This document shows, in pieces, positions 2,775 through 64,000 of a stretch of 64,000 nucleotides of DNA; positions within the stretch are counted from its first letter, which is position 1, and each line of letters starts with the position of its first letter. Made by a program: the position numbers and the translations under genes. Origin of the DNA: Spirochaetota bacterium (GTDB taxonomy: Bacteria > Spirochaetota > UBA4802 > UB4802). The notes under the pieces were generated by a model. That model had not been told where the DNA came from. It was given only the letters and a program-made list of their open reading frames with translations, and made no database searches. The stretch covers positions 2,249 through 66,248 of the forward strand of contig JBFLZD010000013.1 of assembly GCA_040756435.1 (NCBI GenBank), written 5' to 3'.

Positions 2775-2915
2775 ATCCCACCCCTATTCAAATTATAGTA
2801 ACAAATTTGAGTATATCATACACATACTGATTTGTAAAGAAAAAATTACAGTGTTATGTATTTTTTTAATCAACATATTTATTTTTTTGGGCGTGCACCC
2901 GCGGTAACTATCGCC

Positions 2916-3980
2916 TTATAACAACCCCACCCTGTCTTTAATTTTCCCGCTTTCCACCAATTCTGCAAATTCATCGGCCATCGCTTGTCCCACCTCAATT
3001 GCTTTTTCCCAGAATGATAGCCTTTCAGCGTCATTGCCTGCAAATGTATAAAAATCATGTCGGTCAGGGATCTTTTTATATGGCAGCAAATCAATGGCTT
3101 CTTTTGAAGGTGAAATGATGCACACATCATTAAGGCTGTGTTGCGGCTTTCGGTATGTAAGTGCCTTGTCAAACCACCCGGGCACCACACACTCAGAATA
3201 ATGTGGATACAGCGCAATACCGCCATTAAGCGCAAGTGGCAGGTCCATCTGATAATCCACAAGCCCACCATCACGGAGTATTGTAACAGTGCCGTTATGG
3301 AAATATGGCACCCCTTTCATAACCAGCGGAATGGCACCTGAAGCCATGATGGCCTTTTTTACATTTGACGTATCAAGTGGAATATACTGCGTGCTGAAAT
3401 TATTCCATTGTATGAATGACGGGAATGCTCTGCTATCATAAAACACATAGCGGTCAAAATGTAATGCTAAAAGCTTTCTATTAATAGCATTGGAAAGCGC
3501 AGCTGTTGCAAGCCCTGTCATGAGTGGAAGCTTATGTTCACTTATAAGCAGATGTTTTGATCGCGCCGTTATGATGCACAGGCGTATGGTAGGATGTTGT
3601 ATGATTTCTATTACTCTGCTATCGGACAGGTAGGTTTCCATAATGGCAATTGTTTCGGCAGTTATCTCTTCCCTATCAGGATTGAGCGAATACTTCTGGG
3701 CCATGTAGCGCTCTTTAAATGTATCCAGTGCTTTTAGTCCATCCTTTTGCGCAAGTGCTGCAAAGCGCCATGTTGCAATGGATGAGCCAATTAAATGAAC
3801 AGGCGTTTTTCTTTTTTGCAAAAAATGTGAATATACAAGTTTATCAAGCCCATATAGAATAAGCCACTTGGGACCACCAGCAGCACCAAGTACACACTGA
3901 ATTCTTTCTTTTTTCAGGCCTTCGTCTTTAATGATACGGTAGGCCCGTTTCCCTGCTTGAATTGTACACAAACGTTTCAT
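2916..3980 (-). CDS. patatin-like phospholipase family protein (putative)
   Basis: GAAGGPKW (oxyanion-hole-like GGxxG), IGSSIA (GxSxA variant of the nucleophile elbow) and ILRDGGLVDY (the DGG aspartate of the catalytic dyad). Confidence 0.5.
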   Translation of the reverse strand: MKRLCTIQAGKRAYRIIKDEGLKKERIQCVLGAAGGPKWLILYGLDKLVYSHFLQKRKTPVHLIGSSIATWRFAALAQKDGLKALDTFKERYMAQKYSLNPDREEITAETIAIMETYLSDSRVIEIIQHPTIRLCIITARSKHLLISEHKLPLMTGLATAALSNAINRKLLALHFDRYVFYDSRAFPSFIQWNNFSTQYIPLDTSNVKKAIMASGAIPLVMKGVPYFHNGTVTILRDGGLVDYQMDLPLALNGGIALYPHYSECVVPGWFDKALTYRKPQHSLNDVCIISPSKEAIDLLPYKKIPDRHDFYTFAGNDAERLSFWEKAIEVGQAMADEFAELVESGKIKDRVGLL

Positions 3981-4155
3981 AGTAGCCTCATCGTATTACA
4001 GTTACTCAAATAACAGTGTTATGGTATATTGATAATTGCAAGGATTTTTTTATTTGATGGTATTGGCATTTTTGGTTATAGATTTGGAATGGCAGCATTC
4101 GTTTTAGAAAAACAAGGTTATCAAAAAGTTAAACAGATGATGTATACGTTTCTCT

Positions 4156-4196
4156 CTGGCACCTCCTTTTGTTGCCCATACAAAAGAAAGTGCCAG
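4156..4196 (-). terminator. nested inverted repeat (CTGGCAC..CTTTTGT..ACAAAAG..GTGCCAG) 13 nt downstream of the pstS-1 stop
   Basis: 7-bp outer and 7-bp inner perfect inverted repeats. There is no clear U tract, so an intrinsic-terminator role is uncertain. Confidence 0.3.
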
Positions 4197-4209
4197 CAAA
4201 CGGATATAG

Positions 4210-5034
4210 TTATTTAATAGGAATAAAACCTGCCTCTTTAACTATCGCCTGTCCTTCTAAAGAAAGCATAAAGTCTATAAATTCTTGAGCGGCAGGCTTT
4301 ATTTTGACTTCATTGACATACATATAGAGTTTGCGTGCTATGGGGTATTTTCCGCTTTTCCCATTTTCTATGGTTGGCTCTACATTATTCACATATAGCG
4401 GCTTGACTCTATCATTAAGGTAGCCATATCCCACATATCCAATTGCCTTTGGATTTTGTGAAACCGTCTGCAAAATTGCCCCATTTGAAGCCTGCAGCAA
4501 TGCATCTTTACGCACGTCAGCATGTTTCATTACTTTGGATTCCCACACCTCAAAGGTTCCAGAGCTTGAATCACGGGATATAACCACAATGGTTTCATCA
4601 TTGCCACCAACATCCTTCCAGTTTTTTACCGACCCTTCATAAATTGCTTTAAGCTGATGCAAGGTAAGGTTGGACACCGGATTTGAAGGATGCACAATAG
4701 GCACTATCATATCAAATGCAATAGCAACTTCTTTGATGATTTCACCCTTACGCTTTGCAAGCGCTAACTCTTCTGCATGCATTTCGCGTGAAGAGTTTGC
4801 AATATCACAGCTACCATCAATGAGCGACTTTATGCCATCACCAGAGCCAGTGCCTGAAAGGGTTATCACAATTTTATTCTTTTCATAAAATGCTTCGGCA
4901 GCTTTTTGAGTAACGGGTAACACGGTGGTTGAACCTTTAACCACTACTTTTTCCTTAGCTTCTTTTGAACACGATACAATAAATACTGTTACAATAAATA
5001 GTATGCATAGCGTTATGTAGCTTTGTATTTTCAT
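4210..5034 (-). CDS. pstS: phosphate ABC transporter substrate-binding protein PstS (lipoprotein), copy 1
   Basis: Lipoprotein signal (FIVSC) and the PstS family motifs KGSTTVLPV...LSGTGSGDGIKSLIDGSCDIANSSREM. Confidence 0.85.
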   Translation of the reverse strand: MKIQSYITLCILFIVTVFIVSCSKEAKEKVVVKGSTTVLPVTQKAAEAFYEKNKIVITLSGTGSGDGIKSLIDGSCDIANSSREMHAEELALAKRKGEIIKEVAIAFDMIVPIVHPSNPVSNLTLHQLKAIYEGSVKNWKDVGGNDETIVVISRDSSSGTFEVWESKVMKHADVRKDALLQASNGAILQTVSQNPKAIGYVGYGYLNDRVKPLYVNNVEPTIENGKSGKYPIARKLYMYVNEVKIKPAAQEFIDFMLSLEGQAIVKEAGFIPIK

Positions 5035-5264: not shown

Positions 5265-6092
5265 TCAATCAGTTAGTGGTATAAAACCTGCTGCTTTTAC
5301 AATCTGTTGTCCTTCTTTTGAAAGGATAAAATCAATAAATGCCTGCGCTTCAGGTTTTATTTTTACCTCATTGACATACATGTACAACTTTCGTGCTATT
5401 GGGTACGCACCCGATTTCCCGTTAGGTATAGTTGGTTCTACTCCATTTACAGTAAGTGCTTTTACTTTGTCATCTAAGTATCCGTATCCAACATATCCAA
5501 TTGCACGTTTATTCTTTGATACAACGGATATAATTGCACCATTGGAAGCCTGCAATAACGCATCCTTGCGCACTTCAGATTTCTTCATAACCTTTGATTC
5601 CCACACTTCAAACGTTCCTGAACTTGAATCACGGGATATTACAACTATCCTTTCATTGTTGCCACCCACCTGGCTCCAGTTAGTTATAGCGCCTTCATAG
5701 ATGGCTTTAAGCTGAGCCATTGACAAATTTTTTACAGGATTTGATTGATGAACAATAGGAACTATCATATCATACGCAATAGCAACTTCTTTAATCTTTT
5801 CACCTTTGGATTTTGCCATATCCCATTCTTCCTTCTTCATTTCCCGTGAAGAATTTGCTATATCACAGCTACCATCTATAAGCGACTTTATACCATCACC
5901 AGAACCTGTACCTGAAAGACTTATCACAATCTTTGTTTTTTCATAGAAAGCTTCCAGTGCTTTCTGGGCAATGGGTAATACGGTAGTTGAGCCTTTAATG
6001 ACTACCTTTCCCCCTTTTGTTTGTGAAAAACCAATTGATAATGAGCTTACTATCGCTAGTACCATGAAAATTAAAAAACTCTTGACCTTCAT
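5265..6092 (-). CDS. pstS: phosphate ABC transporter substrate-binding protein PstS, copy 2 (tandem paralog)
   Basis: About 65% amino-acid identity to copy 1 over the full length (KGSTTVLPIAQKALEAFYEK...SGTGSGDGIKSLIDGSCDIANSSREM), with a signal peptide. Confidence 0.85.
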   Translation of the reverse strand: MKVKSFLIFMVLAIVSSLSIGFSQTKGGKVVIKGSTTVLPIAQKALEAFYEKTKIVISLSGTGSGDGIKSLIDGSCDIANSSREMKKEEWDMAKSKGEKIKEVAIAYDMIVPIVHQSNPVKNLSMAQLKAIYEGAITNWSQVGGNNERIVVISRDSSSGTFEVWESKVMKKSEVRKDALLQASNGAIISVVSKNKRAIGYVGYGYLDDKVKALTVNGVEPTIPNGKSGAYPIARKLYMYVNEVKIKPEAQAFIDFILSKEGQQIVKAAGFIPLTD

Positions 6093-7837: not shown

Positions 7838-8518
7838 ATGCCAAAAATATATGTAGTTGACGACGAAAAGGACATTCGTGAAATACTGAAAGTCAATCTT
7901 CAAAAAAATGGCTATGATGTTAGTACATTTGCTTCAGCTGAAGAGGTCCTTAAACAATTAACTATCGCCAAACCTGATCTTTTAATACTTGATATTATGA
8001 TGAGTGGCATGGATGGATTGGATTTGTGCAAACACATCAGGGCATCCAATACACTAAAAGATATACCCATTTTATTTCTTTCAGCAAAATCAGCAGAACT
8101 TGACAAAGTGCTGGGACTTGAGTTAGGGGCTGATGATTACCTAACAAAGCCATTCAGTATTCATGAACTCATTGCCCGTGTTAAAGCAATACTGCGGCGT
8201 GTCCAGGGGAAGGAAGAAGTGCCTAAAGAAGTTTTAACCTATAAAGGCATTGTACTGCATCCTGAAAAATTTTCAGTAACTATCGACAAAAACCCCATAG
8301 ACCTTACAAAGACTGAATTCCTTATCCTTAAACTTTTTATGCAATATCCTGGTAAAATTTTTTCCCGTGACAACATCATCGACAGCATCCGCGGCGACAA
8401 TGTCTATGTCATTGACAGAACCGTTGATGTGCATATTATGAATCTTAGAAAAAAATTAGGACATTACAAGGATGCAATTAAAACCTATTCTGGCGTTGGG
8501 TATGGATTAAAAGGGTAA
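7838..8518 (+). CDS. phoB: OmpR-family response regulator (PhoB/PhoP-like)
   Basis: Receiver domain (VVDDE...LLILDIMMSGMDGLDL...LSAKS) plus a winged-helix output domain. It sits in the operon after phoU and before the histidine kinase. Confidence 0.8.
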   Translation: MPKIYVVDDEKDIREILKVNLQKNGYDVSTFASAEEVLKQLTIAKPDLLILDIMMSGMDGLDLCKHIRASNTLKDIPILFLSAKSAELDKVLGLELGADDYLTKPFSIHELIARVKAILRRVQGKEEVPKEVLTYKGIVLHPEKFSVTIDKNPIDLTKTEFLILKLFMQYPGKIFSRDNIIDSIRGDNVYVIDRTVDVHIMNLRKKLGHYKDAIKTYSGVGYGLKG

Positions 8519-8522: not shown

Positions 8523-10256
8523 ATGTTTAAAAGTCTTAAAACAAAATTAATTGTTGTATACTCTGTAGCACTGGTATGCTTTATTTTTTTTCTTCTCATT
8601 TACAGTAGTAGCCATATACACAAAGAATTTACTGTATTCTTAAAAACTGAATTGCAGCAAAGTATTGATTACATTAATACTTACTGCCAGTCATTTCACA
8701 AACCCATTAACAAACAATTTTTTTCTTATGAGATAGTAACCGCTTTAAAAAATCTATCCTATAAAAGTTCCCTGCGCATAACCATTATTAACAATGATGG
8801 CACCGTACTTTTTGACACCGACGCCAACCCTGAATCAATGGAAAACCATCTGTATCGCCCCGAGATACTGGAAGCAAGAAAGAAAGGTACTGGTATGGCA
8901 AGTAGATTCAGTAATACAGTTGGTGCCGATATGTTATACGTTGCTTCATATTATAATTACTTCTATATTCGCACTGCAAAATCAATGTCTACTATCAATG
9001 CACTTATAGAGTCAATTACCAGAAATATCATCATTGCTGGAATCATCATCCTAATTATCAGCATTACCGTAACAGCAATTTTTGCTACTGCTTTCACACG
9101 ACCTATAAAAGAATCATTACACTTTATTAATACATTTTTTAACGGCAACCTACATGCGCGCATACTCAATTATAAAGATGATGAAATGGGCTACTTACAA
9201 AGAGCAATGAACACGCTTGCCGACAATATTCAGCAGCGTATTATAGAACTTACCAATGAAAAAAATAAACTCTTCATGATTATAGAAAACATCCATGACC
9301 CAATTGCGCTTATCGATGAAAATAAAAAAATTGTTATTTATAACAAAGCATTTGCAAACTGTTTTGAATATCCTGAAAGTTTAACAGATAAATACTACTT
9401 CACTGTTATCCGACATAGTGAGCTTAATGCCAAAATATATGTAGCATTTTCACAAAAGCAAAAAATATCGTTTGAAGAAACAATAGATGGTAAATATTTT
9501 CAAATTTTTATCTACCCCTTTGCTGAACCCGCCACAGGTATCCTGCTACTCATGCACGATGTAACCGAGCAAAAGCGCATTCAGCAACTCAAGTCAGATC
9601 TTGTGGGGAATTTATCGCATGAATTAAAAACGCCAATCAGCATCATCCGTGGATACTTAGAAACCATTAAAGACAACATTTGCGATCAAAAAACAGCAGA
9701 GCAATTCATTGAAAATGCACTCATAAATGTTGAACGCCAAAATGCAATTATCAACGACATGCTCAAACTCAACCAATTGGAGACTTCATCTTTCATTACC
9801 AATGAATCCATTGACCTTAAAAAAATCATTACACAGTGTGTAGAGTTGCTATCACCAAAAATTCAAAAAAAGAATCTGGCGATAGTAATAGATATACAGT
9901 CATTGCCACAAAGCATTACTGGCAATGCATTCCTGGCTGAAGAAATTTTTTTCAATCTAATAGATAATGCCATTAACTATAATAATCAAGGTGGATCAAT
10001 AACTATCACCGCACATAAAGAATCAAAATTACTGTCAATAAGTATTGCCGATACTGGCGTGGGCATCCCACCCGATGAAATACCAAGGATTTTTGAACGT
10101 TTTTACCGTGTTGACAAAAGCCGCTCACGCGAGACTGGTGGTACCGGTTTAGGATTATCCATTGTAAAACATGCAGCGCTTATTTTAGGATGGACAGTGG
10201 AAGCTACATCATCATCCAGCGGTTCAACATTCACAATTATTATACCATCAGCGTAA
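8523..10256 (+). CDS. phoR: sensor histidine kinase (PhoR-like)
   Basis: N-terminal transmembrane region, PAS-like region, HisKA H-box LSHELKTPISIIRGYLE, and HATPase_c N/G boxes (IDNAINY, GGTGLGLSIVKH). Confidence 0.75.
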   Translation: MFKSLKTKLIVVYSVALVCFIFFLLIYSSSHIHKEFTVFLKTELQQSIDYINTYCQSFHKPINKQFFSYEIVTALKNLSYKSSLRITIINNDGTVLFDTDANPESMENHLYRPEILEARKKGTGMASRFSNTVGADMLYVASYYNYFYIRTAKSMSTINALIESITRNIIIAGIIILIISITVTAIFATAFTRPIKESLHFINTFFNGNLHARILNYKDDEMGYLQRAMNTLADNIQQRIIELTNEKNKLFMIIENIHDPIALIDENKKIVIYNKAFANCFEYPESLTDKYYFTVIRHSELNAKIYVAFSQKQKISFEETIDGKYFQIFIYPFAEPATGILLLMHDVTEQKRIQQLKSDLVGNLSHELKTPISIIRGYLETIKDNICDQKTAEQFIENALINVERQNAIINDMLKLNQLETSSFITNESIDLKKIITQCVELLSPKIQKKNLAIVIDIQSLPQSITGNAFLAEEIFFNLIDNAINYNNQGGSITITAHKESKLLSISIADTGVGIPPDEIPRIFERFYRVDKSRSRETGGTGLGLSIVKHAALILGWTVEATSSSSGSTFTIIIPSA

Positions 10257-28077: not shown

Positions 28078-28259
28078 CGATAGTATAGTAAAGAGTGTTT
28101 ACCGGTAACTATCGCATATACTATTTTTTAAATATTATTGCATTGCAGGCATTTATTGTGTATTTTAATATAAAGGGGCGATAGTAACCGGAAATATGAC
28201 TTTTGGTAGAGAAGACAGGATAAAAATAGTGCCATATGCAGGATAACAGTGTATAACGC

Positions 28260-34009: not shown

Positions 34010-34010
34010 C

Positions 34011-34529: not shown

Positions 34530-34545
34530 TTAGCGATAGTTCATG

Positions 34546-43163: not shown

Positions 43164-43479
43164 TGTATCTTTAAGGCCTGATTGCTTTATGCTGCGTATT
43201 CCACAGGGCAGGGAAATTATTTTTTTTCTTTCTGATTCATCACAATGCGTACTATCGGCAATATAGAGCTTGGCGTGCTGATAAAGAAATCACGGTGAAA
43301 GCGTGGTACCATTCCCCATTATTAATACAAATAAAAAAATGCTTTACTTTTTACTACTACACGTATACAATTATAACGAAATCGATTAAATTGTGGTTTT
43401 TTAAAGCGGGCAAAACCCATTTACTAAAGCTTTAGTTGGTGTTACGGTAAGGACAATTTATTTTACGGAGGAAGCCAGT

Positions 43480-50209: not shown

Positions 50210-50365
50210 GGCGATAGTTCCTTTAAATCATCTGTGGTATTGTTTTAACAAAACTTTCCCGGTACAAAATGGATGGCATATACCTTCCAAATAAGACTAC
50301 TATACGTATAGTACAATAGTGAGAGTGTCCCAAAAGACACCTCATTGCAACTACTATGCACCCTC

Positions 50366-54479: not shown

Positions 54480-55991
54480 ATGAACTATCGCTCTCATAAA
54501 ATAACAATATTATTATTCTTTATACTGTTGGTTGCAATTTTTCTTTCACTTAGTATTTTTTTTAAAGCGTTTTATCCTTTTCATGTATCCTGCATACCAT
54601 CAAAATCTACTGAGCATGAATTTTTACAATACTTTGACCAGCGCATAAAAGTTTTAATGACAAAATATAACATTCCAGGTGTAAATATTGCTCTCATCAG
54701 ACAAGGAAAACTATTGTGGGTAAATGCATATGGCTTTGCCAACAAAGAAAAAGCAATACCCATGAAACTGGAAACAACCTGCCGCGTTGAGTCAATTTCA
54801 AAATCAGTAACAGCGTGGGGTATTTTAAAACTGATTGAGCGGGGAGCTATTTCTCTTGATGATCGGGTTATAAAACATTTGAAAACATGGAAATTCCCAC
54901 CATCTGCATTTAATCCTGAAACCATAACAATACGGCAGTTATTAAGCCACAGTGCAGGATTGCCCCTGGGTACAATCGGAGTCAGCTATGCTCCTGATGT
55001 CGTAATACCAACCTTACGAGAAAGTCTTTACAAGGATGCCGTCATGATGACATCTCCTGGCTCAACATTTTCTTACTCAAATACAGGATTTAATCTGCTT
55101 GAATTGCTGATTGAAGAGGTAACAAACCAACCTTTTGCCGTATATATGCAGCAAGAAATTTTGCAGCCCTTAGGCATGAAGCACTCAAGCTATCAATGGA
55201 GGGATAGTTTTCAACCATTTCCTAACGGATATACCCTTGATGGTAAACCCGTCCCTGCTTATGCATATCCTGAAAAAGGTGCAGGTGGCTTATTTTCAAC
55301 AATTGAAGATATTACGCGGTTTGTTACTGCAGGTATGACTAAATTCAATGACACCAGCACAAAAGTACTTTCTCACCAATCTATACAGACATTATACAAC
55401 CCCACGGTAAAGATACCTGGCCTGTATGGTTTTGCTTTCCCATGGTATGGTTTTGGACATTTTATTGAATTTTCAAAAAATAATATGATAGCAGTATCAC
55501 ACGGAGGACAGGGTACAGGATGGATGACACACTTCCATTCAATACCCCAAACTGGTGATGGTATTGTAATTTTAACCAATAGCCAACGCAGCTGGCCTTT
55601 TTTTGCATATATTCTGAATGATTGGGCACGGTGGATTGGATTTGATTCTATAGGAATGAGTAAGATTATCTTTGCAGAATATACATTATGGATTGTATTA
55701 TATCTGATATTCATGATACTACTGATATATGTATATCGTCTGTTAAAAGGATTAGTGTTACATACTCGTTCATTCATGTTCATTCAGAAAAGATATTCGC
55801 CTGGGCAGATACTAAAGCTTTGTATTGCCTGTGGCATATTTGGTATACTATTATGGTCTATTAATCAAGATTATCTTTTTATCACATCTGTATTTCCTGA
55901 AGCTTCAGTATGGGCAGGGTATTGTCTTGCTTTTTGTGGCTTTGTGCTGCTTATGTATTTTTTTATGCCTGAAAAAAGTATAAGCAGCTAA
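54480..55991 (+). CDS. beta-lactamase-related serine hydrolase with a C-terminal polytopic membrane region
   Basis: SxxK (SISKSV), YxN (YSNTG) and HGG motifs; N-terminal signal anchor; about 4 C-terminal TM helices. Confidence 0.75.
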   Translation: MNYRSHKITILLFFILLVAIFLSLSIFFKAFYPFHVSCIPSKSTEHEFLQYFDQRIKVLMTKYNIPGVNIALIRQGKLLWVNAYGFANKEKAIPMKLETTCRVESISKSVTAWGILKLIERGAISLDDRVIKHLKTWKFPPSAFNPETITIRQLLSHSAGLPLGTIGVSYAPDVVIPTLRESLYKDAVMMTSPGSTFSYSNTGFNLLELLIEEVTNQPFAVYMQQEILQPLGMKHSSYQWRDSFQPFPNGYTLDGKPVPAYAYPEKGAGGLFSTIEDITRFVTAGMTKFNDTSTKVLSHQSIQTLYNPTVKIPGLYGFAFPWYGFGHFIEFSKNNMIAVSHGGQGTGWMTHFHSIPQTGDGIVILTNSQRSWPFFAYILNDWARWIGFDSIGMSKIIFAEYTLWIVLYLIFMILLIYVYRLLKGLVLHTRSFMFIQKRYSPGQILKLCIACGIFGILLWSINQDYLFITSVFPEASVWAGYCLAFCGFVLLMYFFMPEKSISS

Positions 55992-56181: not shown

Positions 56182-57393
56182 ATGCTGACTATGTTTGTAG
56201 TAGCATCGGTGTGGCTTGGACTGGCAGTTATTTCCACAATTCTTGCAAACAGGCTTAAAATATCAATGGCCCTTATGGAAATTACCGTTGGGGCAATAGC
56301 AGGTTTCATCTTTGCTAAATATTTTAATCCTGATTTTATGCAGGCTAATTCTGACTGGATAAAATTTATTGCCGGTACCGGAGCTGTAGTGCTAACCTTT
56401 TTAGCTGGTGCAGAACTTGATTATCATACCATCCGGGATACATTTAAAGAAGTTACCATTGTTGGCTTTATAGGCTTTCTTTCTCCATTTATTGGGTGCA
56501 CATTGATTGCATATTACATTCTTGGCTGGAGCTTCCAGTCCAGCTTACTTGCCGGTGTGGCACTGTCCACTACATCCATGGCTGTCGTGTACGCAGTTAT
56601 GATTGAATACGGATTTAATAAAACAAAATATGGCAAGGGAATACTGGGAGCATGTTTTATAAATGATCTGGGAACAGTCATTGCACTTGGAATCATATTT
56701 GCCCCATTTACCTACAAAACAATTATTTTTATAATAGTGGCGATAGTAACCTTTATTGCCATGCCGGTAATAACTTCACGGCTTACAAAAGTCTATGGCC
56801 ACCGTACCGTAGCAATAAGAACCAAGTGGATATTATTTATATTGTTTGCATTAGGATCGTTAGCTCTATGGTCGGGCAGTGAAGCTGTACTGCCTGCATA
56901 TATACTGGGGATGGTACTTGCTTCAAGTGTTGCTAAGGATGAATTTTTTATGCGCCGTTTAAGGACACTTACAATAGGATTTTTAACACCAATTTATTTT
57001 TTACGTGCTGGATTTTTAGTGAATCTTCCTGTAATTTTTCTTGCCCCATTACCGTTTATAATACTTTTTAGCGGCAAAGTTATCACAAAAATCTTTGGGT
57101 TATATCCTGTCATTGGTATATTCAAAGAAAGCACTAAAGAGCGATGGTACTATACACTTCTTATGTCAACAGGACTGACATTTGGATCAATCTCAGCATT
57201 GTTTGGTTTAACTCATAATATTATTGACCAGAACCAGTATTCATTTTTAATTGCCGCTGTTATTGCCAGTGCTGTTGTTCCCACTCTTATTGCCAATACA
57301 TACTTTTTACCTGAACATCTACTTGAAGTTCCAATGGCAGATGAGGAAATACCCCAATTAGATGGATTAAACGGTTCAACTAATAATAAATGA
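56182..57393 (+). CDS. cation:proton antiporter (CPA/Na+-H+ exchanger family)
   Basis: About 12 TM helices with Na_H_Exchanger-like composition. Start set at the second ATG, 5 nt after GGAGG; the ORF track starts at 56170. Confidence 0.7.
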   Translation: MLTMFVVASVWLGLAVISTILANRLKISMALMEITVGAIAGFIFAKYFNPDFMQANSDWIKFIAGTGAVVLTFLAGAELDYHTIRDTFKEVTIVGFIGFLSPFIGCTLIAYYILGWSFQSSLLAGVALSTTSMAVVYAVMIEYGFNKTKYGKGILGACFINDLGTVIALGIIFAPFTYKTIIFIIVAIVTFIAMPVITSRLTKVYGHRTVAIRTKWILFILFALGSLALWSGSEAVLPAYILGMVLASSVAKDEFFMRRLRTLTIGFLTPIYFLRAGFLVNLPVIFLAPLPFIILFSGKVITKIFGLYPVIGIFKESTKERWYYTLLMSTGLTFGSISALFGLTHNIIDQNQYSFLIAAVIASAVVPTLIANTYFLPEHLLEVPMADEEIPQLDGLNGSTNNK

Positions 57394-57550: not shown

Positions 57551-58882
57551 ATGTGTGATACCATTGTTGCCACCAGCAAAGCTACTGCCGACGGCAGTGT
57601 AATCTTAGCAAAAAATAGTGACAGGGAAGCTAACGAAGCACAGCTATTAAAATATATAGCCAGACGAAACTGGGGTAGCGAAACAGCTGTCCAATGCACC
57701 TACATATCCATACCGCAGGTAAAAAGCACCCATGAAATATTAATTTCAACACCATTCTGGATGTGGGGTTGTGAAATGGGAGCAAATGAACATGGCCTTG
57801 CTATTGGCAATGAGGCGGTATTTACCAAAGAACCCTATGAAAAAACAGGACTTTTAGGTATGGATATTATGCGGTTAGCTTTAGAACGCTGTAAAACTGC
57901 GTATGATGCACTCATGCTATCCACCGAACTTATAGAACGCTATGGTCAGGGTGGCAATGCGGGAATGGAACATACATTATATTACCACAACTCATTTATA
58001 TTTGCTGACACTAACGAAGCGTATATCCTTGAAACCGCTAATAAACAATGGGTTGCAGTAAAAGTTGATGGTATACGCAGTATTTCTAATGGATTGACCA
58101 TAGAAGAAGAATACCATTATTCTTCAAAAAATATTGAGGATTATGCCCGCAAAAAAGGATACCTGAAAAAAGGAAAAACCTTTAACTTTAAAGAATGCTT
58201 TTCTGATTGGTTTTATACATATTTTTCAAAATGCGCTTCACGGCAATCACGGACAACAAGTTGTGCCATGCGCCATTCCGGTTCCATCACACCACACAGT
58301 ATGTTTGCATTTTTGCGTGATCACGGCAGCGACCAAGAATATCTTTCTCCCGATAAAACTGATATGGGAACGGTGTGTATGCATGCGTCACTTCTTCCCA
58401 CACGTCCAAGCCAATCGGTTGCTGCATTTGTTGCACATCTGCGCAAAGACACTCCTGTATTCTGGGCAACCGGATCATCAGGGACCTGTACAAGTGTCTT
58501 TATGCCATTTTATCTTGTTGGAAAAGAAATAGATTATTTTCCCGCAAATGAAACAAGTACATACTCACCTGACGTATACTGGTGGTTGCATGAAAAAATA
58601 CACCGTCAGGCCATTTTCAAATGGGATTATTTCCAGAGGACTATCGCCCCCGCTATTAATACACTTGAAGATGAATTTATTAAAAAAGAAAATGAACTGC
58701 ACAAAAAGAAGAATACCAGTAGCCAGAAGTATTTTGATTTTTCAAAACAATGTGTGGAAAAGGTCATTGAACTCCATGATCGCTGGGATAAGGAACTAAA
58801 AGCAGCTCCACCATCCCCAACCAGGCTTTCATTTAAGCTATTCTGGAATGGTCAGTCAAAAAAAGCCATGATACCCCTGTAA
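57551..58882 (+). CDS. Ntn-hydrolase peptidase, C69-family dipeptidase-like
   Basis: Nucleophile Cys at position 2 (MCDTIVATSKATADGSVILAKNSDR), as in C69 dipeptidases (MCTTI...ARNED). 443 aa. Confidence 0.6.
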   Translation: MCDTIVATSKATADGSVILAKNSDREANEAQLLKYIARRNWGSETAVQCTYISIPQVKSTHEILISTPFWMWGCEMGANEHGLAIGNEAVFTKEPYEKTGLLGMDIMRLALERCKTAYDALMLSTELIERYGQGGNAGMEHTLYYHNSFIFADTNEAYILETANKQWVAVKVDGIRSISNGLTIEEEYHYSSKNIEDYARKKGYLKKGKTFNFKECFSDWFYTYFSKCASRQSRTTSCAMRHSGSITPHSMFAFLRDHGSDQEYLSPDKTDMGTVCMHASLLPTRPSQSVAAFVAHLRKDTPVFWATGSSGTCTSVFMPFYLVGKEIDYFPANETSTYSPDVYWWLHEKIHRQAIFKWDYFQRTIAPAINTLEDEFIKKENELHKKKNTSSQKYFDFSKQCVEKVIELHDRWDKELKAAPPSPTRLSFKLFWNGQSKKAMIPL

Positions 58883-59551: not shown

Positions 59552-61624
59552 TTACTCCTGAATCTGAGAAAAATCTATAAGTGTGGTAAACAGTGTCAGG
59601 ATATAATGTAACATCCCCAACCTGTTGTCACGAACCGCAGTGTTAGTGTCCATCACCATAACGTTATCAAAATACGTATCAATAATCTCCTTGCCTTCAA
59701 TAAGTAAAAGGAATAACTCAGTGTATTTATTCTGTGTAATATATTCTTTAATGATTTTTTCTTTACTGTGGAAAAAACTATATAAACGTTTCTCCTCATC
59801 AATAACCAGCGCATCCGGATTAAATGAAAATGCATACCCCGGATTCTTTTTAACAAATGCATTAACGATATTGTTCATACGTTTGAATGCAATCAAAAGA
59901 TCGCCAAAACGCTTATCCTTACGGAATTCATGAATGCTACGGGCTCTGAGAAACAACTCATAGTAATCATAACAGCCAACAGCCAAACATGCATTAACCT
60001 CATCAAAGGCAAATTGTTTTTCATATAAAAATGTCTTGGCCCTGCCATTAATAAACTCAAGTATTGGCTCAACAAGCTTGTCACCATTACTATACAGCGT
60101 TGCAACTTCATTACACACGTTTGCTAAATCCAGATGTATTGTTCGTTCAACAAGCATATCCACAATTGCAGCAGCCTGCCTGCGCAGTGCATAGGGGTCG
60201 GCAGAACCTTTAGGGATATTCCCAACAGAAAACGAACCAAAAATATTATCAATTTTTTCAGCCAGCGATACAACAATACTCACAATATGCTCCGGAAGCA
60301 CATCCCCCTGAAAACGAGGCCTGTATTGAAAATCAATAGCCTGTGCCACTTCTTCATCCTCGCCATCAAGCAGCGCATATATTTTGCCAATCTGCCCCTG
60401 CAGGGATGTAAACTCAAACACAAGGGCAGTGGTAAGGTCGGTTTTTGATAGCATCACGGCCCGTTGTATCTTTTGTGTGGTTTGTGTATTTAGCGATAGT
60501 TCATTGCAAATGGCTTTTGCTATTGTCTGCATCCTTTCAACTTTATCGTAGATGGAACCTAACTCTTTATGAAACAGGATGCTTTTAAGCATGTCCACTC
60601 TGCCTGCAAGCGGGATTTTGCGGTCCTCTTCAAAGAAGAAACGCGCATCCGTAAACCGTGCTCTGATTACACGCTGATTCCCCTTTACGATATGCTCTGT
60701 TGGTGGATTATTTGAAATAACTAAAAATTTTGGAAGTAAATTCCCTTTACTATCGCGCACAGCAAAATATTTTTGATGCTCCTTCATTTCAGTTATAAGG
60801 ACTATATCAGGTATAGATAAGAATGCCTCATCAAAACTGCATACCACTACATACGGTCTTTCTGTCAAAAAGGTAACTGTAGCAAGCAATTCATCATCCT
60901 CAACAAGCACGCCACCCAACTGTTTTGCTGCGTTTTGCAATTGTTCATGAATTATTTTTTTTCGCTTATTATGATCTACTATGACCCCATTATTTTCCAG
61001 CGTGGGAATATAATCTTCACATCGTGATAAAGGAATCATACGGTTATGCTGTATATAATGACCTCGCACTTTGTTGTCAAAATCAATGCCATCAATAGAA
61101 TACGGAACCACTGCATCATTAAAAAGTACACATATATAATTAACTGGTCGCGGGAATGATACACGTTTCACATTCCATCGCATCCGCTTTGGGAAATTTA
61201 GCTCATTAATAATCTTTTCAATTAAAACAGGAATAATTGTTGTTGCAGGTTTTGCTTCAACTTTGCGCTTTGCATAGATATAATCACCTTTGCCGGTCTT
61301 TTGGATGTATGTATCCTCCCGCTTAATTTTATTTCCTTCAAGAAAACCGGTTAATGCTTTGGTTGGGTTGCCCCTGTCATCATAGGCGGCTTTCACCGAA
61401 GGGCCTTTGAGTTCCTCATAATCTTCAGACTGACTATCAGCCATGTCATATACCAGTATTGCAATACGGCGTGGTGTTGCATATACCGTACACTTTTCAA
61501 ACGCAATACGATACGCCTGTAAACCTTCGGTTACAATTTTTTCTACCTGCTCAATAGCAGATGGGATATACCCTGCTGGAATTTCTTCAGTTCCAATTTC
61601 GCATACAAAATTAAGCTTTGACAT
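59552..61624 (-). CDS. glyS: glycine--tRNA ligase beta subunit
   Basis: N-terminus MSKLNFVCEIGTEEIPAGYIPSAIEQ and the conserved body (690 aa). No glyQ adjacent. Confidence 0.9.
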   Translation of the reverse strand: MSKLNFVCEIGTEEIPAGYIPSAIEQVEKIVTEGLQAYRIAFEKCTVYATPRRIAILVYDMADSQSEDYEELKGPSVKAAYDDRGNPTKALTGFLEGNKIKREDTYIQKTGKGDYIYAKRKVEAKPATTIIPVLIEKIINELNFPKRMRWNVKRVSFPRPVNYICVLFNDAVVPYSIDGIDFDNKVRGHYIQHNRMIPLSRCEDYIPTLENNGVIVDHNKRKKIIHEQLQNAAKQLGGVLVEDDELLATVTFLTERPYVVVCSFDEAFLSIPDIVLITEMKEHQKYFAVRDSKGNLLPKFLVISNNPPTEHIVKGNQRVIRARFTDARFFFEEDRKIPLAGRVDMLKSILFHKELGSIYDKVERMQTIAKAICNELSLNTQTTQKIQRAVMLSKTDLTTALVFEFTSLQGQIGKIYALLDGEDEEVAQAIDFQYRPRFQGDVLPEHIVSIVVSLAEKIDNIFGSFSVGNIPKGSADPYALRRQAAAIVDMLVERTIHLDLANVCNEVATLYSNGDKLVEPILEFINGRAKTFLYEKQFAFDEVNACLAVGCYDYYELFLRARSIHEFRKDKRFGDLLIAFKRMNNIVNAFVKKNPGYAFSFNPDALVIDEEKRLYSFFHSKEKIIKEYITQNKYTELFLLLIEGKEIIDTYFDNVMVMDTNTAVRDNRLGMLHYILTLFTTLIDFSQIQE

Positions 61625-61662: not shown

Positions 61663-62670
61663 TCAATGTTTCTTTTTCAATTCGGCATACGGATTAATAT
61701 GCTGCCCTTTGCGGATGATCTCAAAATGAAGATGTGGTCCTGTTGAGTTGCCAGTGTTACCACTTTTTGCAATAATCTGTCCCTGCTTAACATACTGCCC
61801 TTCACGAACAGTTATTTTTGAAAGATGCCCATATAAGGTTTTATCGCCCCCTGGATGAGTAACCACTACCACCTTGCCATAACCACCAAGCCACCCGGCA
61901 TAGCTTACACGGCCATATTTGCTTGCTCGCACCCACTCATAATTGGCACGCACATCAATTCCCTGATGAAACTGGCTTTCACCATAGAAGGGATCCTTTC
62001 GCCACCCATAGCCGCTTGTAATATTCTTTGTGTGCACAGGCCATAAAAATCCTTTAAAAATATCCAATGGTTTTGCATCAGGAATGAAAATATCCTGCCC
62101 TATATTTATAAAATCAGGATTTACAATGTTGTTTTCTTCAACAATCCTGTTGATTGCCACATTATATTTTTTTGACAAAACGGGTAATGTTTGACCACGC
62201 TGTACACTCACCAGCAGGCCATCTTTATTGGGTATCTTCAACACCTGCCCCACATGTACCAGGTCATACGATTCCAGCCTGTTACACCCACAAATGGTAT
62301 CCATGGATACACCGTACATCTGTGCAATCTCACTTAATGTTTCACCCAATTTGACTGTATGCTGAATAATCTTTAGTGCTTTTTTCTTTTCAGGTTCTTC
62401 AAAGTCTTTGCTTGCAATAGCTTTCTTCTTTAATTCATCATACCATGCAGCCTCAGAATCAAAAACATGGTGCGAGCGGGCATACCCGGTAAACAGGATA
62501 ACCCCTAACATAATAGTTCCGCATACATAAGCAGCGCTTTTAATTTTTTTGAATGGTATGCTTTTAATAATAGTATTTTTTTTGCCTCTGAATATAATAA
62601 TTATCTCAGCTGACAAAATAGTAATACTGAGACTTCCAAATGAATAGCTATGTAATTGCCAGTGTTTCAT
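61663..62670 (-). CDS. M23-family metallopeptidase with two LysM domains and an N-terminal TM anchor
   Basis: Two LysM motifs (GETLSEIAQMYGVSMDTICGCN...; GQTLPVLSKKYNVAINRIVEEN...) and M23 HxxxD / HxH motifs (HQGIDVRA, HLHFEI). Confidence 0.85.
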   Translation of the reverse strand: MKHWQLHSYSFGSLSITILSAEIIIIFRGKKNTIIKSIPFKKIKSAAYVCGTIMLGVILFTGYARSHHVFDSEAAWYDELKKKAIASKDFEEPEKKKALKIIQHTVKLGETLSEIAQMYGVSMDTICGCNRLESYDLVHVGQVLKIPNKDGLLVSVQRGQTLPVLSKKYNVAINRIVEENNIVNPDFINIGQDIFIPDAKPLDIFKGFLWPVHTKNITSGYGWRKDPFYGESQFHQGIDVRANYEWVRASKYGRVSYAGWLGGYGKVVVVTHPGGDKTLYGHLSKITVREGQYVKQGQIIAKSGNTGNSTGPHLHFEIIRKGQHINPYAELKKKH

Positions 62671-62701
62671 AGTGTAATTATCGGTATTTGTGTTTCATGA
62701 A

Positions 62702-63130
62702 TCATCTTTCCTGGCCCTTTTTCCCAAATATGCCCGTTTGTGCTTGTGGTGAGCCTGCATACGATTCTTCTATAAGCTTTTTAACATCTTTCTTTTGACC
62801 GCCAGTAATGGTAACCATACCATGTGCCACCACACCGCGCTGTACTGTAAGAATAGGCGTTTCAATATCACCCAGCACTTTTGCAGTTTCTAAAAGTTTA
62901 ACTTCTTCATCGGCAATAATATTGCCTATTACAGTTCCAGCCACCACAACATTCTTGGCATGAATATTAGTTTTTACTTTTCCGGTTTCACCAACTACCA
63001 GTTCTTCATCGGTTTTTATTTCACCTTCAAATTTACCGTCAATTCGCAGTGACCCACTGATATAAAACTTTCCTTCAAAGACAGAACCTTCGCCAATGGT
63101 GCTGTTTATACTATCACTTTTACCTGCCAT
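62702..63130 (-). CDS. bactofilin (CcmA-like polymer-forming cytoskeletal protein)
   Basis: DUF583 beta-helical repeats (IGEGSVFEGKFYISGSLRIDGKFEGEI...VVAGTVIGNIIADEEVKLLETAKVLGDIET). Confidence 0.8.
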   Translation of the reverse strand: MAGKSDSINSTIGEGSVFEGKFYISGSLRIDGKFEGEIKTDEELVVGETGKVKTNIHAKNVVVAGTVIGNIIADEEVKLLETAKVLGDIETPILTVQRGVVAHGMVTITGGQKKDVKKLIEESYAGSPQAQTGIFGKKGQER

Positions 63131-63665
63131 ACTGTTAACACCCCACGATTATAAATTTCATCACCGTTACAATTTACACTTACTCTCAGATTTTTGCAAT
63201 TTTATTTCAACCATTTTTTATTGTAAATCAATTAATCCCATAGTTATTTTTATTATTGCATATTTTTAGTAATCTCATATCTTGTGCGATAGTTACTGTA
63301 AAAAATATCATTGGTCGCAATTATGACCTATAAATTGAATAAAGATATGTGCACTTACAAATTTCCTGAATTGCAAAAGTCCATTGTAAAGACATTGATT
63401 CATGATTGTAAAAATTGGGTAGATTCAGGATCAAGTCCAGAGTGACTTTTATGGTCAAGAATGACATTTGGGGGTCTTGCTTACGTTTGTGATGCTGGAT
63501 TACATTTATAATCAGGAATGGCATTTGAAGTACACAATGACGATTGTGATACTTTGTGAGGCTTATAATACAAAATGATATCCATGATAATGTTATCATC
63601 AAATTTTTTATTACAGATGACATTGTACTTAATAGAGAATATATCAATAGTTCATTATACCTGAT

Positions 63666-64000
63666 ATGAATACAAATACCATCACACTATGTGTCAATGA
63701 GATATTCTACTCTCTTCAGGGAGAAACTACCCGCACAGGGTTCCCATCGCTTTTCATACGGCTTGCAGGATGCAATCTTAACTGCAGGTGGTGCGATACT
63801 GTCTATGCAAAAACTGGTTTACCGATAACTATCGCCCATATTTTGCAAACAATAGAGAAATATCCCACTCCAAACCACATCACCATTACCGGTGGAGAAC
63901 CGTTAATTCAGGAACATACAGTGACACTTCTTGATATTCTTTGTAGAAAAAACTATCCTTTGCAGCTGGAAACCAACGGTAGCATTTCAATTGAACACGT
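63666..64000 (+). CDS. queE: 7-carboxy-7-deazaguanine synthase QueE (radical SAM), 5' partial; continues beyond the window
   Basis: MNTNTITLCVNEIFYSLQGETTRTGFPSLFIRLAGCNLNCRWCDT parallels E. coli QueE (INEMFQTLQGEG...IFIRLQGCPVGCAWCDT). Not in the ORF track because the frame is open at the window end. Confidence 0.8.
   Translation, partial: MNTNTITLCVNEIFYSLQGETTRTGFPSLFIRLAGCNLNCRWCDTVYAKTGLPITIAHILQTIEKYPTPNHITITGGEPLIQEHTVTLLDILCRKNYPLQLETNGSISIEH

Follow-up and report, generated by a model that had tools for sequence, protein, structure and literature searches.

The octamer ACTATCGC/GCGATAGT occurs in 32 exact copies (17 on the plus and 15 on the minus strand) in the 64-kb stretch of DNA analyzed here (the window), which belongs to an uncultured Leptospirales lineage of Leptospira-like spirochaetes. 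This over-representation, at 20-100 times expectation, is real; the word is confined to a single clade, and its sites are kept above background in both coding and non-coding DNA. As judged from these sequence features, the best reading, which we put forward tentatively, is that ACTATCGC may be a novel genomic word of Spirochaetota linked to uptake or transformation.

Abundance and placement of the word

Exact counting bears out the original prediction, which had reported at least 39 copies of the 7-mer ACTATCG/CGATAGT, about 30 copies of the 8-mer split 15/15 and 17 copies of the 9-mer AACTATCGC: besides the 32 octamers, the window contains 46 (27+19) copies of the 7-mer and, on both strands, 18 (11+7) of the 9-mer (Table 1). 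The expectations from base composition given there (8, 1.5 and 0.5) are matched by calculated values of 8.6, 1.76 and 0.54, and the observed densities are 0.5 per kb for the 8-mer (about one per 2 kb, both strands) and 0.72 per kb for the 7-mer. Copies do lie within the range 2905-63840 first assigned to the motif, but this is not its full extent, as an extra copy starts at 1053.

By over-representation, ACTATCGC ranks first among all 8-mers of the window. Across 100 dinucleotide-preserving shuffles the 8-mer count averaged 0.8 and never exceeded 3, against 32 observed, and a Markov model of order 3 predicts 1.76. The excess over a higher-order Markov background, a preset check on the claim, persists once training excludes the motif: with the motif and its 1-mismatch sites hidden before fitting, models of orders 1-5 predict 0.29-0.87 copies (p < 1e-38). 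The unmasked order-5 expectation of 15.0 (p = 9e-5) is too high, since the 6-mers of the motif itself enter the model, and the maximal-order expectation of 31.5 is uninformative because the motif itself inflates the model. With zero, one and two mismatches, observed-to-expected ratios are 20, 1.2-1.4 and about 1.0 for the 8-mer, and about 78-97, 7 and 1.35 for the 10-mer AACTATCGCC; the full consensus of 10-12 nt (GTAACTATCGCC) is about 80-500-fold over-represented. Variants with a single mismatch at an inner position (2-6) are somewhat fewer than expected (45 observed, 62 expected), with no strong depletion of any one 1-mismatch variant. Copies in the window are spaced no more evenly than at random (CV 0.81, p = 0.14).

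While 75% of copies lie inside ORFs, 8 of the 32 (25%) are intergenic in a window that is 11-13% non-coding. Coding copies use five frames on both strands, T-I-A being the commonest; the predicted T-I-A, x-L-S and N-Y-R frames are all found, together with antisense A-I-V and D-S. Since copies occupy different frames as well as non-coding DNA, a peptide effect does not account for them, in agreement with the earlier argument for selection on the DNA word. The word distorts the encoded proteome, making T-I-A (22 occurrences, 6.5 expected) and A-I-V (17 occurrences, 7.8 expected) 2-3 times too frequent: 9 of the 22 T-I-A are encoded by ACTATCGCN and 7 of the 17 A-I-V by GCGATAGTN, against 1.0 (from codon usage) and 0.56 expected, respectively. 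According to Findlay and Redfield, tripeptides encoded by uptake sequences are made about twice as frequent by them (PMC2817400).

The flanks had been described as consistent; the preference is real but weak (0.2-0.4 bit at each position) and shows best outside coding DNA (GTA-ACTATCGC-C), the word extending to about ttnnCnGTA-ACTATCGC-Ca where it is unconstrained. Mean flank identity between copies is 0.31 (maximum 0.52), compared with 0.26 for random positions. Plus and minus copies are interleaved along the window, where GC skew is negative in 13 of 16 bins, which suggests that the window lies within one replichore.

The predicted hairpin after glgX (28078/28108) does consist of an inverted pair, the only one within 35 nt in the window, with a 7-bp stem, but it is weak (-12.3 kcal/mol, z = -1.4; equalled by 19 of 200 shuffles), is not scored as a terminator in a consensus scan, and is not conserved. 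The copies at 28108 and 28178 are invariant in all nine aligned genomes, at DNA identities as low as about 75%, in a spacer that diverges with indels; unlike them, the hairpin and its T-run vary among relatives.

Table 1. Copies of the 8-mer ACTATCGC and variants of its 7-mer core in the window
Feature	Position	Strand	Context
8-mer	1053..1060	+	at stop of ORF 556-1053, between convergent genes
8-mer	2907..2914	+	intergenic (gcggtaACTATCGCc)
8-mer	4241..4248	+	antisense in PstS-like gene 4210-5034(-), A-I-V
8-mer	6049..6056	+	antisense in PstS-like gene 5265-6092(-), A-I-V
8-mer	7961..7968	+	sense in response-regulator gene 7838-8518, T-I-A
8-mer	9879..9886	-	antisense in histidine-kinase gene 8523-10256, A-I-V
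8-mer	13630..13637	-	sense in PfkB kinase gene 13058-14083(-), x-L-S
8-mer	13924..13931	-	sense in PfkB kinase gene 13058-14083(-), x-L-S
8-mer	18398..18405	-	sense in 957-aa ORF 18034-20907(-), T-I-A; kept in L081, L082, L084
8-mer	18497..18504	+	antisense in 957-aa ORF 18034-20907(-), A-I-V; kept in L081, L082, L084
8-mer	21370..21377	-	sense in GntR/FCD regulator gene 20904-21650(-), T-I-A
8-mer	21715..21722	+	antisense in UxuA gene 21613-22611(-), G-D-S
8-mer	28108..28115	+	intergenic after glgX (GGTAACTATCGC)
8-mer	28178..28185	-	intergenic; inverted partner of 28108, ~62 nt apart
8-mer	34533..34540	-	16-nt gap between aconitase-family small and large subunit genes
8-mer	35906..35913	-	intergenic (ttcagtaACTATCGCca)
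8-mer	38574..38581	+	sense in ORF 38238-38603, T-I-A
8-mer	40146..40153	-	antisense in ThDP-enzyme (acetolactate-synthase-like) gene 38616-40271, A-I-V
8-mer	43753..43760	+	sense in alpha/beta-hydrolase gene 43480-44454, T-I-A
8-mer	47455..47462	+	sense in glycosyltransferase gene 46328-47563, E-L-S
8-mer	48750..48757	-	sense in TPR-protein gene 48353-50209(-), T-I-A
8-mer	50211..50218	-	directly upstream of TPR-protein start codon; kept in L059, L064, L002
8-mer	52515..52522	+	sense in chemoreceptor gene 52327-54462, K-L-S
8-mer	53080..53087	-	antisense in chemoreceptor gene 52327-54462, A-I-V
8-mer	54283..54290	+	sense in chemoreceptor gene 52327-54462, T-I-A
8-mer	54484..54491	+	sense in beta-lactamase-family gene 54480-55991, N-Y-R
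8-mer	56740..56747	-	antisense in Na+/H+ exchanger-family gene 56170-57393, A-I-V
8-mer	58640..58647	+	sense in peptidase C69 gene 57551-58882, T-I-A
8-mer	60493..60500	-	sense in glyS 59552-61624(-), E-L-S; relatives have GCTATCGC
8-mer	60749..60756	+	antisense in glyS 59552-61624(-), R-D-S
8-mer	63286..63293	-	intergenic (acagtaACTATCGCa); kept in L059, L064, L002, L004
8-mer	63828..63835	+	sense in ORF 63666-63998, T-I-A; kept in all relatives but L003 (ACTATCAC)
ACTATCGa	8279..8285	+	
ACTATCGt	13548..13554	-	
ACTATCGa	14988..14994	+	
ACTATCGa	20646..20652	-	
ACTATCGa	27727..27733	+	in glgX
ACTATCGt	28078..28084	-	directly 3' of glgX stop codon; left hairpin arm; degraded in L086, L087
ACTATCGa	32081..32087	+	
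ACTATCGa	32660..32666	+	
ACTATCGt	33575..33581	+	
ACTATCGa	40757..40763	+	in HepT-like gene
ACTATCGg	43251..43257	+	intergenic
ACTATCGt	45551..45557	-	
ACTATCGt	45767..45773	+	
ACTATCGg	47553..47559	+	

Distribution and maintenance in related genomes

Twelve further contigs of close relatives, covering two separate chromosomal regions, carry about 2-5 copies per 10 kb, the enrichment that had been proposed as a check: 4.5-4.9 in L059, L064, L002 and L004, and 1.8-4.4 in eight independent metagenome contigs (L080-L087). Distant relatives (<=63% GlgX identity) have 6 copies in 865 kb (0.07 per 10 kb), Leptospirales loci of similar GC content have 1 copy in ~150 kb, and in the neighbouring lineages L003, L005 and L061 the word is weaker or decayed.

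Motif 8-mers remain unchanged much more often than aligned 8-mers in general; for example, all are identical from L002 to L004 (8 of 8, against 0.22 for all aligned 8-mers; p = 6e-6), from L059 to the window (9 of 9, against 0.43) and from L084 to the window (4 of 4, against 0.24). Orthologous positions differ by point substitutions only. The copy at 21370 is missing in all four relatives aligned (GAGATAGC in L081, L082 and L084; GCTATAGT in L083), and that at 58640 is present in L005 and four closer relatives, with one mismatch in L064 and L003. The copy at 54283 was gained in the window's lineage only (orthologues ACAAGCGC, GCCAGCGC, GCAAGTGC and ACTAACGC); it and two new L004 sites involve 2-4 substitutions each, both transitions and transversions, at motif positions 1-6. 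L003 (79% DNA identity) constitutes a natural control in which the word decays at the neutral rate: sites are retained there only at the background rate, 3 of 10 aligned shared positions being intact, 6 having one mismatch and 1 having three.

Candidate forces behind the word

A DNA-uptake-type signal, the first candidate of the original prediction, appears to fit the added evidence best because of the clade restriction, the conserved sites, the steep mismatch profile and the inflated tripeptides, although we hold this view with less than even confidence. Copies would build up at ordinary chromosomal positions by point substitutions and would then be held intact by a sequence-specific force, most likely the one behind the DUS of Neisseriaceae and the USS of Pasteurellaceae. 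A natural-transformation system would have a DNA receptor, at the surface or in the periplasm, that prefers word-bearing DNA; conspecific fragments with the word would be taken up and recombined more often than word-less ones, and this biased uptake would act as a molecular drive, making and maintaining copies at any position where the protein can accommodate them. Three suppositions that we infer from the analysis, and regard as plausible if somewhat less than an even bet, are that biased uptake or transformation is the force at work, that such a receptor exists and that the host is competent. The 64-kb window contains no competence, pilin or DNA-receptor gene. We know of no report of natural competence in Leptospirales, and nothing relevant was found in the literature on Leptospira and uptake sequences. 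ComEC-domain proteins are common in Spirochaetes (PMC6299819). In line with the earlier statement that no described element has this sequence, a full-text literature search returned no paper tying ACTATCGC to over-representation.

Conservation and directional gains would be equally expected from direct selection on another DNA-level function. The word could be the recognition site of some other genome-wide system, each copy being directly selected without any role in uptake, which we consider somewhat less likely than the uptake reading; an orphan methyltransferase with its reader (cf. HIP1/DmtA), a nucleoid-structuring protein or a 'self'-DNA marker for a nuclease or helicase are candidates for such a system. 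The above-background conservation is the very argument used for selection on HIP1 (PMC5861425), copies are mostly coding, as with HIP1, and lack terminator association, and the decay in L003 is what losing such a protein would bring about. However, the non-uptake signals of like density that we considered are polar (Chi, KOPS), the palindromic, methylation-linked HIP1 is now tied to transformation, and the word is non-palindromic, non-polar and without GATC. Nucleoid and segregation sites such as parS, matS and those of Noc and SlmA are orders of magnitude rarer, the window contains no methyltransferase gene, and direct selection on each of ~1,000 or more sites would have to be strong enough to distort the proteome 2-3 fold, a distortion that drive explains more easily. 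Sequence-biased repair or mutation (a very-short-patch-type or methyl-directed ratchet), turning near-matches into a functionless by-product, is improbable. Such a ratchet was reportedly proposed by Elhai for HIP1; the mild inner-position depletion looks as if variants had been converted, and a single enzyme, gained or lost, would account for clade restriction and decay in L003. Yet new sites arise through transitions and transversions at positions 1-6, whereas very-short-patch repair acts on T:G mismatches at one position only; Dcm/Vsr in E. coli shifts word frequencies less than 2-fold, against 20-100-fold here, and none of the variants taken singly shows strong depletion.

A recombination hotspot of the Chi type or an FtsK-orienting sequence of the KOPS type would also be an over-represented 8-mer with copies dispersed over the chromosome, and a likeness of HIP1 to Chi has been noted, but such a polar signal is disfavoured as very unlikely because the orientations are mixed within what appears to be one replichore: were 75% of copies co-oriented, the probability of at most 17 of 32 would be ~0.006 (binomial estimate by hand). 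No known Chi or KOPS comes near this excess, and a truly polar word looks different, as does AGCTTAAG in L051 (9+/1-). Least probable of all, and only barely conceivable, is a remnant of a longer repeat or mobile element (REP, MITE, insertion-sequence end) or the effect of a repeatedly used peptide or of codon bias. The window does contain REP-like repeats as a separate family, and T-I-A is the commonest coding frame, but no motif copy lies within the REP-like blocks, and the unrelated flanks and substitution-only differences among orthologues leave no longer repeated element as the source, the other preset check. The five frames, both strands and non-coding DNA, and a codon usage that predicts one of the 22 T-I-A codings and not nine, complete the refutation of a longer element, peptide or codon bias.

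Comparison with known genomic words

USS/DUS number 1,471, 765 and 1,892 per genome (PMC2817400), and the density of the word lies within their range, as calculated from these counts and approximate genome sizes. Their mismatch fall-off, reported by Bakkali (PMC1939737), is non-linear and of the same shape, but their 1-mismatch excess is 3-6 times, compared with only 1.2-1.4 times here. The word resembles USS, with its cores AAGTGCGGT / ACAAGCGGT and weak AT-rich flanks, in having a short non-palindromic core with weakly informative flanks in an AT-rich genome at about 0.3-0.8 per kb, equal orientations, most copies in ORFs in few tolerated frames, encoded tripeptides increased about 2-fold or more (PMC2817400), a steep mismatch fall (PMC1939737), origin by point mutation and restriction to a family or genus. 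It differs in its unrelated sequence and phylum, in fewer terminator-forming inverted pairs and in an uptake role that is putative. DUS (AT-GCCGTCTGAA and dialects), bound by the minor pilin ComP, likewise has a clade-specific consensus of 10-12 nt, weaker or decayed in neighbouring lineages, and conserved intergenic copies, but in N. meningitidis only ~35% lie in ORFs (PMC2817400). About half of DUS/USS are in predicted terminators, many as close inverted pairs (10.1101/2025.10.24.684340), whereas the word has no terminator association and a single weak, unconserved hairpin pair. At the level of sequence, every DUS/USS hallmark is present except the terminator link.

Chi (RecBCD/AddAB) and KOPS (FtsK) are also dispersed, over-represented chromosomal 5-8-mers, but their orientation follows replication and their enrichment is far lower, unlike that of the non-polar word. 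The cyanobacterial HIP1 (GCGATCGC; 0 copies in the window) is, like the word, an octamer with about one copy per gene, mostly coding, more conserved than neutrality predicts both inside ORFs and between them, and of long obscure function (PMC5861425). It differs as a perfect palindrome with the methylation targets GATC and CGATCG, the word being asymmetric. Recent work connects HIP1 with natural transformation (10.1101/2024.09.10.611283; 10.64898/2026.06.24.733823), and all the known non-polar hyper-abundant words that we identified (DUS, USS and, of late, HIP1) now have ties to that process. The GCGAT common to HIP1 and the word is probably a coincidence.

Abundance and coding context of the word

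Exact counting over the 64-kb window (G+C 38.4%) yielded 46 copies of the core ACTATCG/CGATAGT (27+/19-), 32 copies of the 8-mer ACTATCGC/GCGATAGT (17+/15-) and, on both strands, 18 copies of the 9-mer AACTATCGC, matching almost to the digit the at least 39, about 30 and 17 copies of the original prediction, and its report of the word on both strands. ACTATCGC ranks first for over-representation among the 8-mers of the window; it reaches a mean of 0.8 and a maximum of 3 copies in dinucleotide-preserving shuffles, and 1.76 copies are expected under a third-order Markov model. Models trained on unmasked sequence expect 15 copies at order 5 and 31.5 at maximal order, but constitute an unfair test because they learn the motif’s own 6- and 7-mers; even so, p = 9e-5 at order 5. 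When the motif and its one-mismatch sites are masked before training, models of orders 1-5 expect 0.29-0.87 copies, so that the excess amounts to 20-100 fold and withstands the proposed check against Markov orders 3-5. The finding is real, highly significant and evolutionarily maintained.

The density of ACTATCGC is 0.5 per kb in the window (0.5-0.7 per kb is the range for the word), with a mean interval of 2,025 bp. The 64-kb scale gives no indication of even or periodic spacing (CV 0.81 vs 0.98 under random placement, p = 0.14). Copies in the two orientations are interleaved, GC skew is negative in 13/16 bins, suggesting that the window belongs to a single replichore, and the word is non-polar at this scale. 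The window is ordinary housekeeping chromosome, encoding, among others, pstS/pstCA/pstB-phoU-phoB/phoR, glgX, aconitase-family subunits, a thiolase, a chemoreceptor, glyS and a bactofilin.

No single longer repeated element underlies the copies: over the 48 bases that flank each of the 32 sites, mean identity is 31% (maximum 52%), vs 26% (maximum 46%) at random positions. A separate family of interspersed hairpin repeats, GTCATTGCGAGG...GAAGCAATCTC..., does occur in the window, at approximately 23.3, 25.1-25.6, 36.0-36.3, 50.4-50.6 and 51.7-52.1 kb, and no motif copy lies inside its blocks. A REP/MITE unit, which would be longer, dyad-symmetric and mainly intergenic, was rejected given the unrelated flanks, the 75% of copies in ORFs and the different sequence of the real REP-like family. 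Its units, of about 100-115 nt and interspersed or in tandem, follow the layout cGTCATTGCGAgg...cGAAGCAATCTc...GAGATTGCTTC...CTTCGACAAG...GCAATGAC, one of them folding at -33.6 kcal/mol; the window has 27 copies of GTCATTGC/GCAATGAC, and the loci of four relatives (L002, L004, L064, L015) have 4-6 each.

Coding copies of the 8-mer comprise 15 in sense orientation, as T-I-A in frame 0 (nine), x-L-S in frame 2 (five) and N-Y-R in frame 1 (one), and nine in antisense, as A-I-V (seven) and D-S (two); together with eight non-coding copies, these bear out the several reading frames (T-I-A, E-L-S, N-Y-R) and intergenic occurrences first reported. T-I-A appears 22 times in window proteins vs 6.5 expected from amino-acid composition (3.4 times), and ACT-ATC-GCN encodes 9 of the 22 where codon usage predicts 1.0; A-I-V appears 17 times vs 7.8 expected (2.2 times), seven of them encoded by GCG-ATA-GTN (0.56 expected). 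The DNA word thus shapes the proteome, not the reverse, in agreement with the original argument for selection on DNA. The proposition that the word originated as a mobile-element remnant or as a peptide or codon effect is accordingly of negligible probability, being refuted by flanks, repeat-block overlap, frames, orthologous substitutions and tripeptide codons.

Non-coding DNA makes up 11-13% of the window but contains eight of the 32 copies (25%), an approximately 2-fold enrichment. Non-coding sites pooled across the clade (n=10) share the consensus ttnnCnGTA-ACTATCGC-(C/A), with A at -1 in 9/10, G at -3 in 7/10 and T at -2 in 7/10; this longer consensus implies that the unconstrained word approximates GTAACTATCGCC, bordered by T-rich DNA upstream and A-rich DNA downstream. 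The consistent flanks originally described are therefore present, more clearly at non-coding sites, but weak, at only 0.2-0.4 bit per position outside the core. Single-mismatch variants fall short of expectation at the inner positions 2-6 (CTATC), with 45 observed vs 62 expected, while those at positions 1, 7 and 8, where alternatives are tolerated, are enriched 2.3 times. Observed/expected ratios for ACTATCGC are about 20, 1.2-1.4 and about 1.0 at 0, 1 and 2 mismatches, and for the 10-mer AACTATCGCC about 78-97, 7, 1.35 and 0.95 at 0-3 mismatches. Rfam and tRNA scans returned no match overlapping the motif.

The inverted pair predicted to form a hairpin after glgX exists and is the only close one in the window, but the hairpin is weak and not conserved. 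A terminator role was rejected: the stem is weak, a consensus scan did not flag it, and conservation is lacking for both the left arm and the T-run.

Coordinates of word sites and other features of the window and of one distant relative
Feature	Position (strand)	Observation
Close inverted pair	28078/28108	hairpin -12.3 kcal/mol, z = -1.4
Other inverted pair	28108/28178	62 nt between copies
Invariant GGTAACTATCGC, spacer 3' of glgX	28104-28115	nine genomes aligned
Invariant GCGATAGT, same spacer	28178-28185	nine genomes aligned
Gained site, window	54283	ACTATCGC vs orthologues ACAAGCGC, GCCAGCGC, GCAAGTGC, ACTAACGC
Gained site, L004		ACTATCGC vs ATCATTGC, ATTATTGC, ATCATCGC, GTTATTGC, ACCATTGC
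Another gained site, L004		ACTATCGC vs GCTGCTGC, ACTGCTGC
Hairpin repeats	23260-23470, 25150-25620, 35960-36260, 50355-50600, 51720-52140	
ORFs overlapping hairpin-repeat arrays	25086-25625, 36019-36252, 50319-50579, 51819-52193	probably spurious
AAA-ATPase_like + PDDEXK_9 nuclease domain gene	23518-25062 (-)	REP-like arrays on both sides; within 21.7-28.1 kb, one of the two longest 8-mer-free stretches; segment may be recently acquired
Long ORF, 957 aa	18034-20907 (-)	no Pfam/NCBIfam match; word three times (two 8-mers, one 7-mer)
Long ORF, 556 aa	28260-29930 (+)	no Pfam/NCBIfam match
Nucleotidyltransferase (Polbeta/NTP_transf_2) + HepT-like RNase gene pair	40281-41092 (+)	resembles an MNT-HEPN-type toxin-antitoxin module; word present just as a 7-mer variant
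Fluoride riboswitch (Rfam RF01734)	56060-56120 (+)	53.6 bits, E = 4.9e-12; directly upstream of next entry
Na+/H+ exchanger-family gene	56170-57393	
AGCTTAAG in L051 (uncultured Leptospirales, CAZBFP010000002.1)	72-17625	10 times in 22 kb vs 0.9 expected; 9+/1-, dispersed

Phylogenetic spread and turnover of sites

Relatives identified through GlyS-beta are all uncultured Leptospirales/Spirochaetota metagenome-assembled genomes (L059, JARYLT01; L064, JBBFLA01; L002, DYLU01; L004, CALEUQ01; L003, CAZDWJ01; L005, DCUV01). The four nearest motif-rich genomes (L059, L064, L002 and L004; GlyS identity 87-94%, DNA identity 82-89%) have the word at 4.5-4.9 copies per 10 kb, as the top 8-mer in each. 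The CTATCG core is only about 2-fold in excess in L003 (79% DNA identity) and L005 (74%), and the glyS-region loci of relatives at <=62% GlyS identity display no excess of the word. Scanning metagenomes for a second, independent region (glgX) added eight further contigs of the clade (L080-L087), whose densities are 1.8-4.4 copies per 10 kb, and 71 distant loci with 6 copies in 865 kb. The enrichment in close relatives that the original prediction proposed to check is hence present in 12 contigs at a similar density (1.8-4.9 copies per 10 kb), reproducing the result over 13 independent contigs, and its occurrence in assemblies from many unrelated studies indicates a genus-level trait, not an assembly artefact.

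An order-wide set of lineage-specific words was considered and rejected, the high-ranking 8-mers inspected in other Leptospirales loci being mostly tandem repeats within one low-complexity gene. Tandem repeats of 21-63 nt with many CAGGG and GACC words lie in the first ~1 kb of seven distant loci (L036, L048-L052 and L066), some 9-10 kb upstream of glyS; they generate spurious top 8-mers and probably encode a low-complexity repeat protein. The clearest exception is the dispersed AGCTTAAG of L051, a strongly polar word and a candidate Chi- or KOPS-like signal of another lineage.

Mapping of orthologous positions indicates that most sites are common to the motif-rich genomes, and that genomes without a given site differ by substitutions alone, never by insertion; some lineage-specific gains took several substitutions of different kinds. 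Compared with the background of all aligned 8-mers, motif 8-mers are much more often unchanged from one genome to another: 9/9 from L059 to the window (background 0.43), 8/8 from L002 to L004 (0.22; p = 6e-6), 6/7 from L064 to L004 (0.23) and, in the glgX region, 4/4 for L084 (0.24) and 2/2 for L086 and L087 (0.13-0.14). In the non-coding spacer 3' of glgX, the region outside the two invariant word sites presents indels and a mean column identity of 65% over nine genomes. L003 (CAZDWJ010000008.1) retains window sites at background rate (2/11 vs 0.17); at 10 aligned shared positions, three sites are intact, six have one mismatch and one has three, the altered forms being ACTGTCGC, ACTATCGA (twice), ACTATCAC, GCTATCGC (twice) and ACGATAGC. 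This pattern looks like neutral decay after loss of the maintaining force, which would make L003 a natural loss-of-maintenance control that could point to the responsible gene through comparative genomics.

Candidate mechanisms

Judged by its sequence features, the word belongs to the class of hyper-abundant, non-mobile genomic words formed by the DNA uptake sequence of Neisseriaceae (DUS), the uptake signal sequence of Pasteurellaceae (USS) and the cyanobacterial palindromic octamer HIP1 (GCGATCGC), here in a new phylum and not as an established DUS/USS. Published uptake sequences supply comparators for density, ORF share and encoded tripeptides, inflated ~2-fold (PMC2817400), for mismatch profile and molecular drive (PMC1939737) and for frame bias (10.1101/2025.10.24.684340), and the combined features, as read from the DNA, are their signature: a non-palindromic 8-12-nt core with weak flanks at 0.5-0.7 per kb, equal orientations without replication polarity, origin in place by point mutation, a steep non-linear fall of observed/expected with mismatches, few tolerated coding frames with inflated tripeptides, and maintenance above neutral expectation. 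The 0.5 per kb of the word falls within the ~0.3-1 per kb of DUS/USS (a genome total of hundreds to thousands, far above expectation) and, like them, it is common to a genus or family and missing or altered in neighbouring lineages. The word is enriched about 2-fold in intergenic DNA; unlike DUS/USS, which have about half of their copies in terminators and frequently in closely spaced inverted pairs (10.1101/2025.10.24.684340), it forms one close pair, and its 1-mismatch excess is smaller.

We tentatively favor a mechanism in which a putative DNA receptor of a transformation system would prefer word-bearing DNA, and biased uptake, with homologous recombination as the next step, would make the word highly frequent; uptake bias, receptor and competence are what we infer from the sequence-level consequences observed. 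The 64-kb window contains no competence, pilin, restriction-modification or methyltransferase gene, with ComEC, ComEA, DprA and a type IV pilus with DNA-binding minor pilin all absent from it; ComEC-domain proteins are widespread in Spirochaetes generally (PMC6299819). That the word represents an independent origin of an uptake or transformation specificity signal in Spirochaetota is a still more tentative proposition. If true, it would be the first such signal outside Proteobacteria, the recently proposed cyanobacterial role of HIP1 aside; an uncultured, environmentally widespread Leptospirales lineage would be naturally competent, favoring DNA of its own kind through GTAACTATCGCC, and L003 would be a natural loss-of-function relative able to pinpoint the receptor gene.

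To our knowledge, sequence-specific uptake has been established in two proteobacterial families only in more than 40 years; how and why uptake words evolve is still debated, and genetic tools for the Leptospira order are poor. If this is a third or fourth independent case, from a distant phylum, it would establish the repeated evolution of such signals, in a young system where gain, upkeep and decay are all visible among species 75-90% identical. Phylogenetic profiling that sets the motif-rich genomes against the decaying relative offers a clear route to the responsible protein. Natural competence in the Leptospira order would also be hinted at for the first time; with another function, the word would still be a strongly maintained genome-wide signal without a known reader. 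Full-text literature searches retrieved no report of the word as an over-represented, functional or uptake-linked element, consistent with the original statement that no such element is described; the 8-mer is present in 889 papers, of which the top-ranked look incidental, with primer or oligonucleotide sequences. A search combining Leptospira with uptake sequences retrieved nothing relevant linking them.

The conservation data fit direct selection as well as drive, and could thus reflect some other DNA-level reader, such as a HIP1-like methyltransferase-linked system, a nucleoid protein or a self-marker. We consider this somewhat less likely than uptake, since the word shows no palindromic symmetry or polarity and is much denser than known architectural sites, and HIP1 itself is now being linked to natural transformation (10.1101/2024.09.10.611283; 10.64898/2026.06.24.733823). 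Creation of the word by a repair or mutation ratchet is improbable, because sites were gained through both kinds of substitution, transitions as well as transversions, at many positions, and none of the variants stands out as specifically depleted; a very-short-patch-type signature was likewise rejected, no single transition variant being strongly depleted. Far less probable still is a Chi (RecBCD/AddAB) or KOPS (FtsK) signal, given the lack of co-orientation across the 64-kb window (17+/15-), in contrast with the strand bias of AGCTTAAG in L051.

Like HIP1, the word is hyper-abundant, and its conservation, inside ORFs as well as between them, exceeds neutral expectation; unlike HIP1, a palindrome in which the methyltransferase targets GATC and CGATCG are embedded, ACTATCGC differs from its reverse complement and lacks GATC. 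Neither CGATCG nor GCGATCGC occurs in the window, but the HIP1/CGATCG link was dropped because the expectation for CGATCG in 150 kb of DNA pooled from the clade is just 2.4-4 copies, so that its absence is not significant. In that pool (the window with L059, L064, L002 and L004), GGGCCC, TCTAGA, CCTAGG, CTCGAG and CGATCG have 0 copies, each with only 0.2-3 expected under a maximal-order model; CTAG is strongly avoided (24 observed vs 158 expected), and GATC occurs at about 0.54 of expectation.
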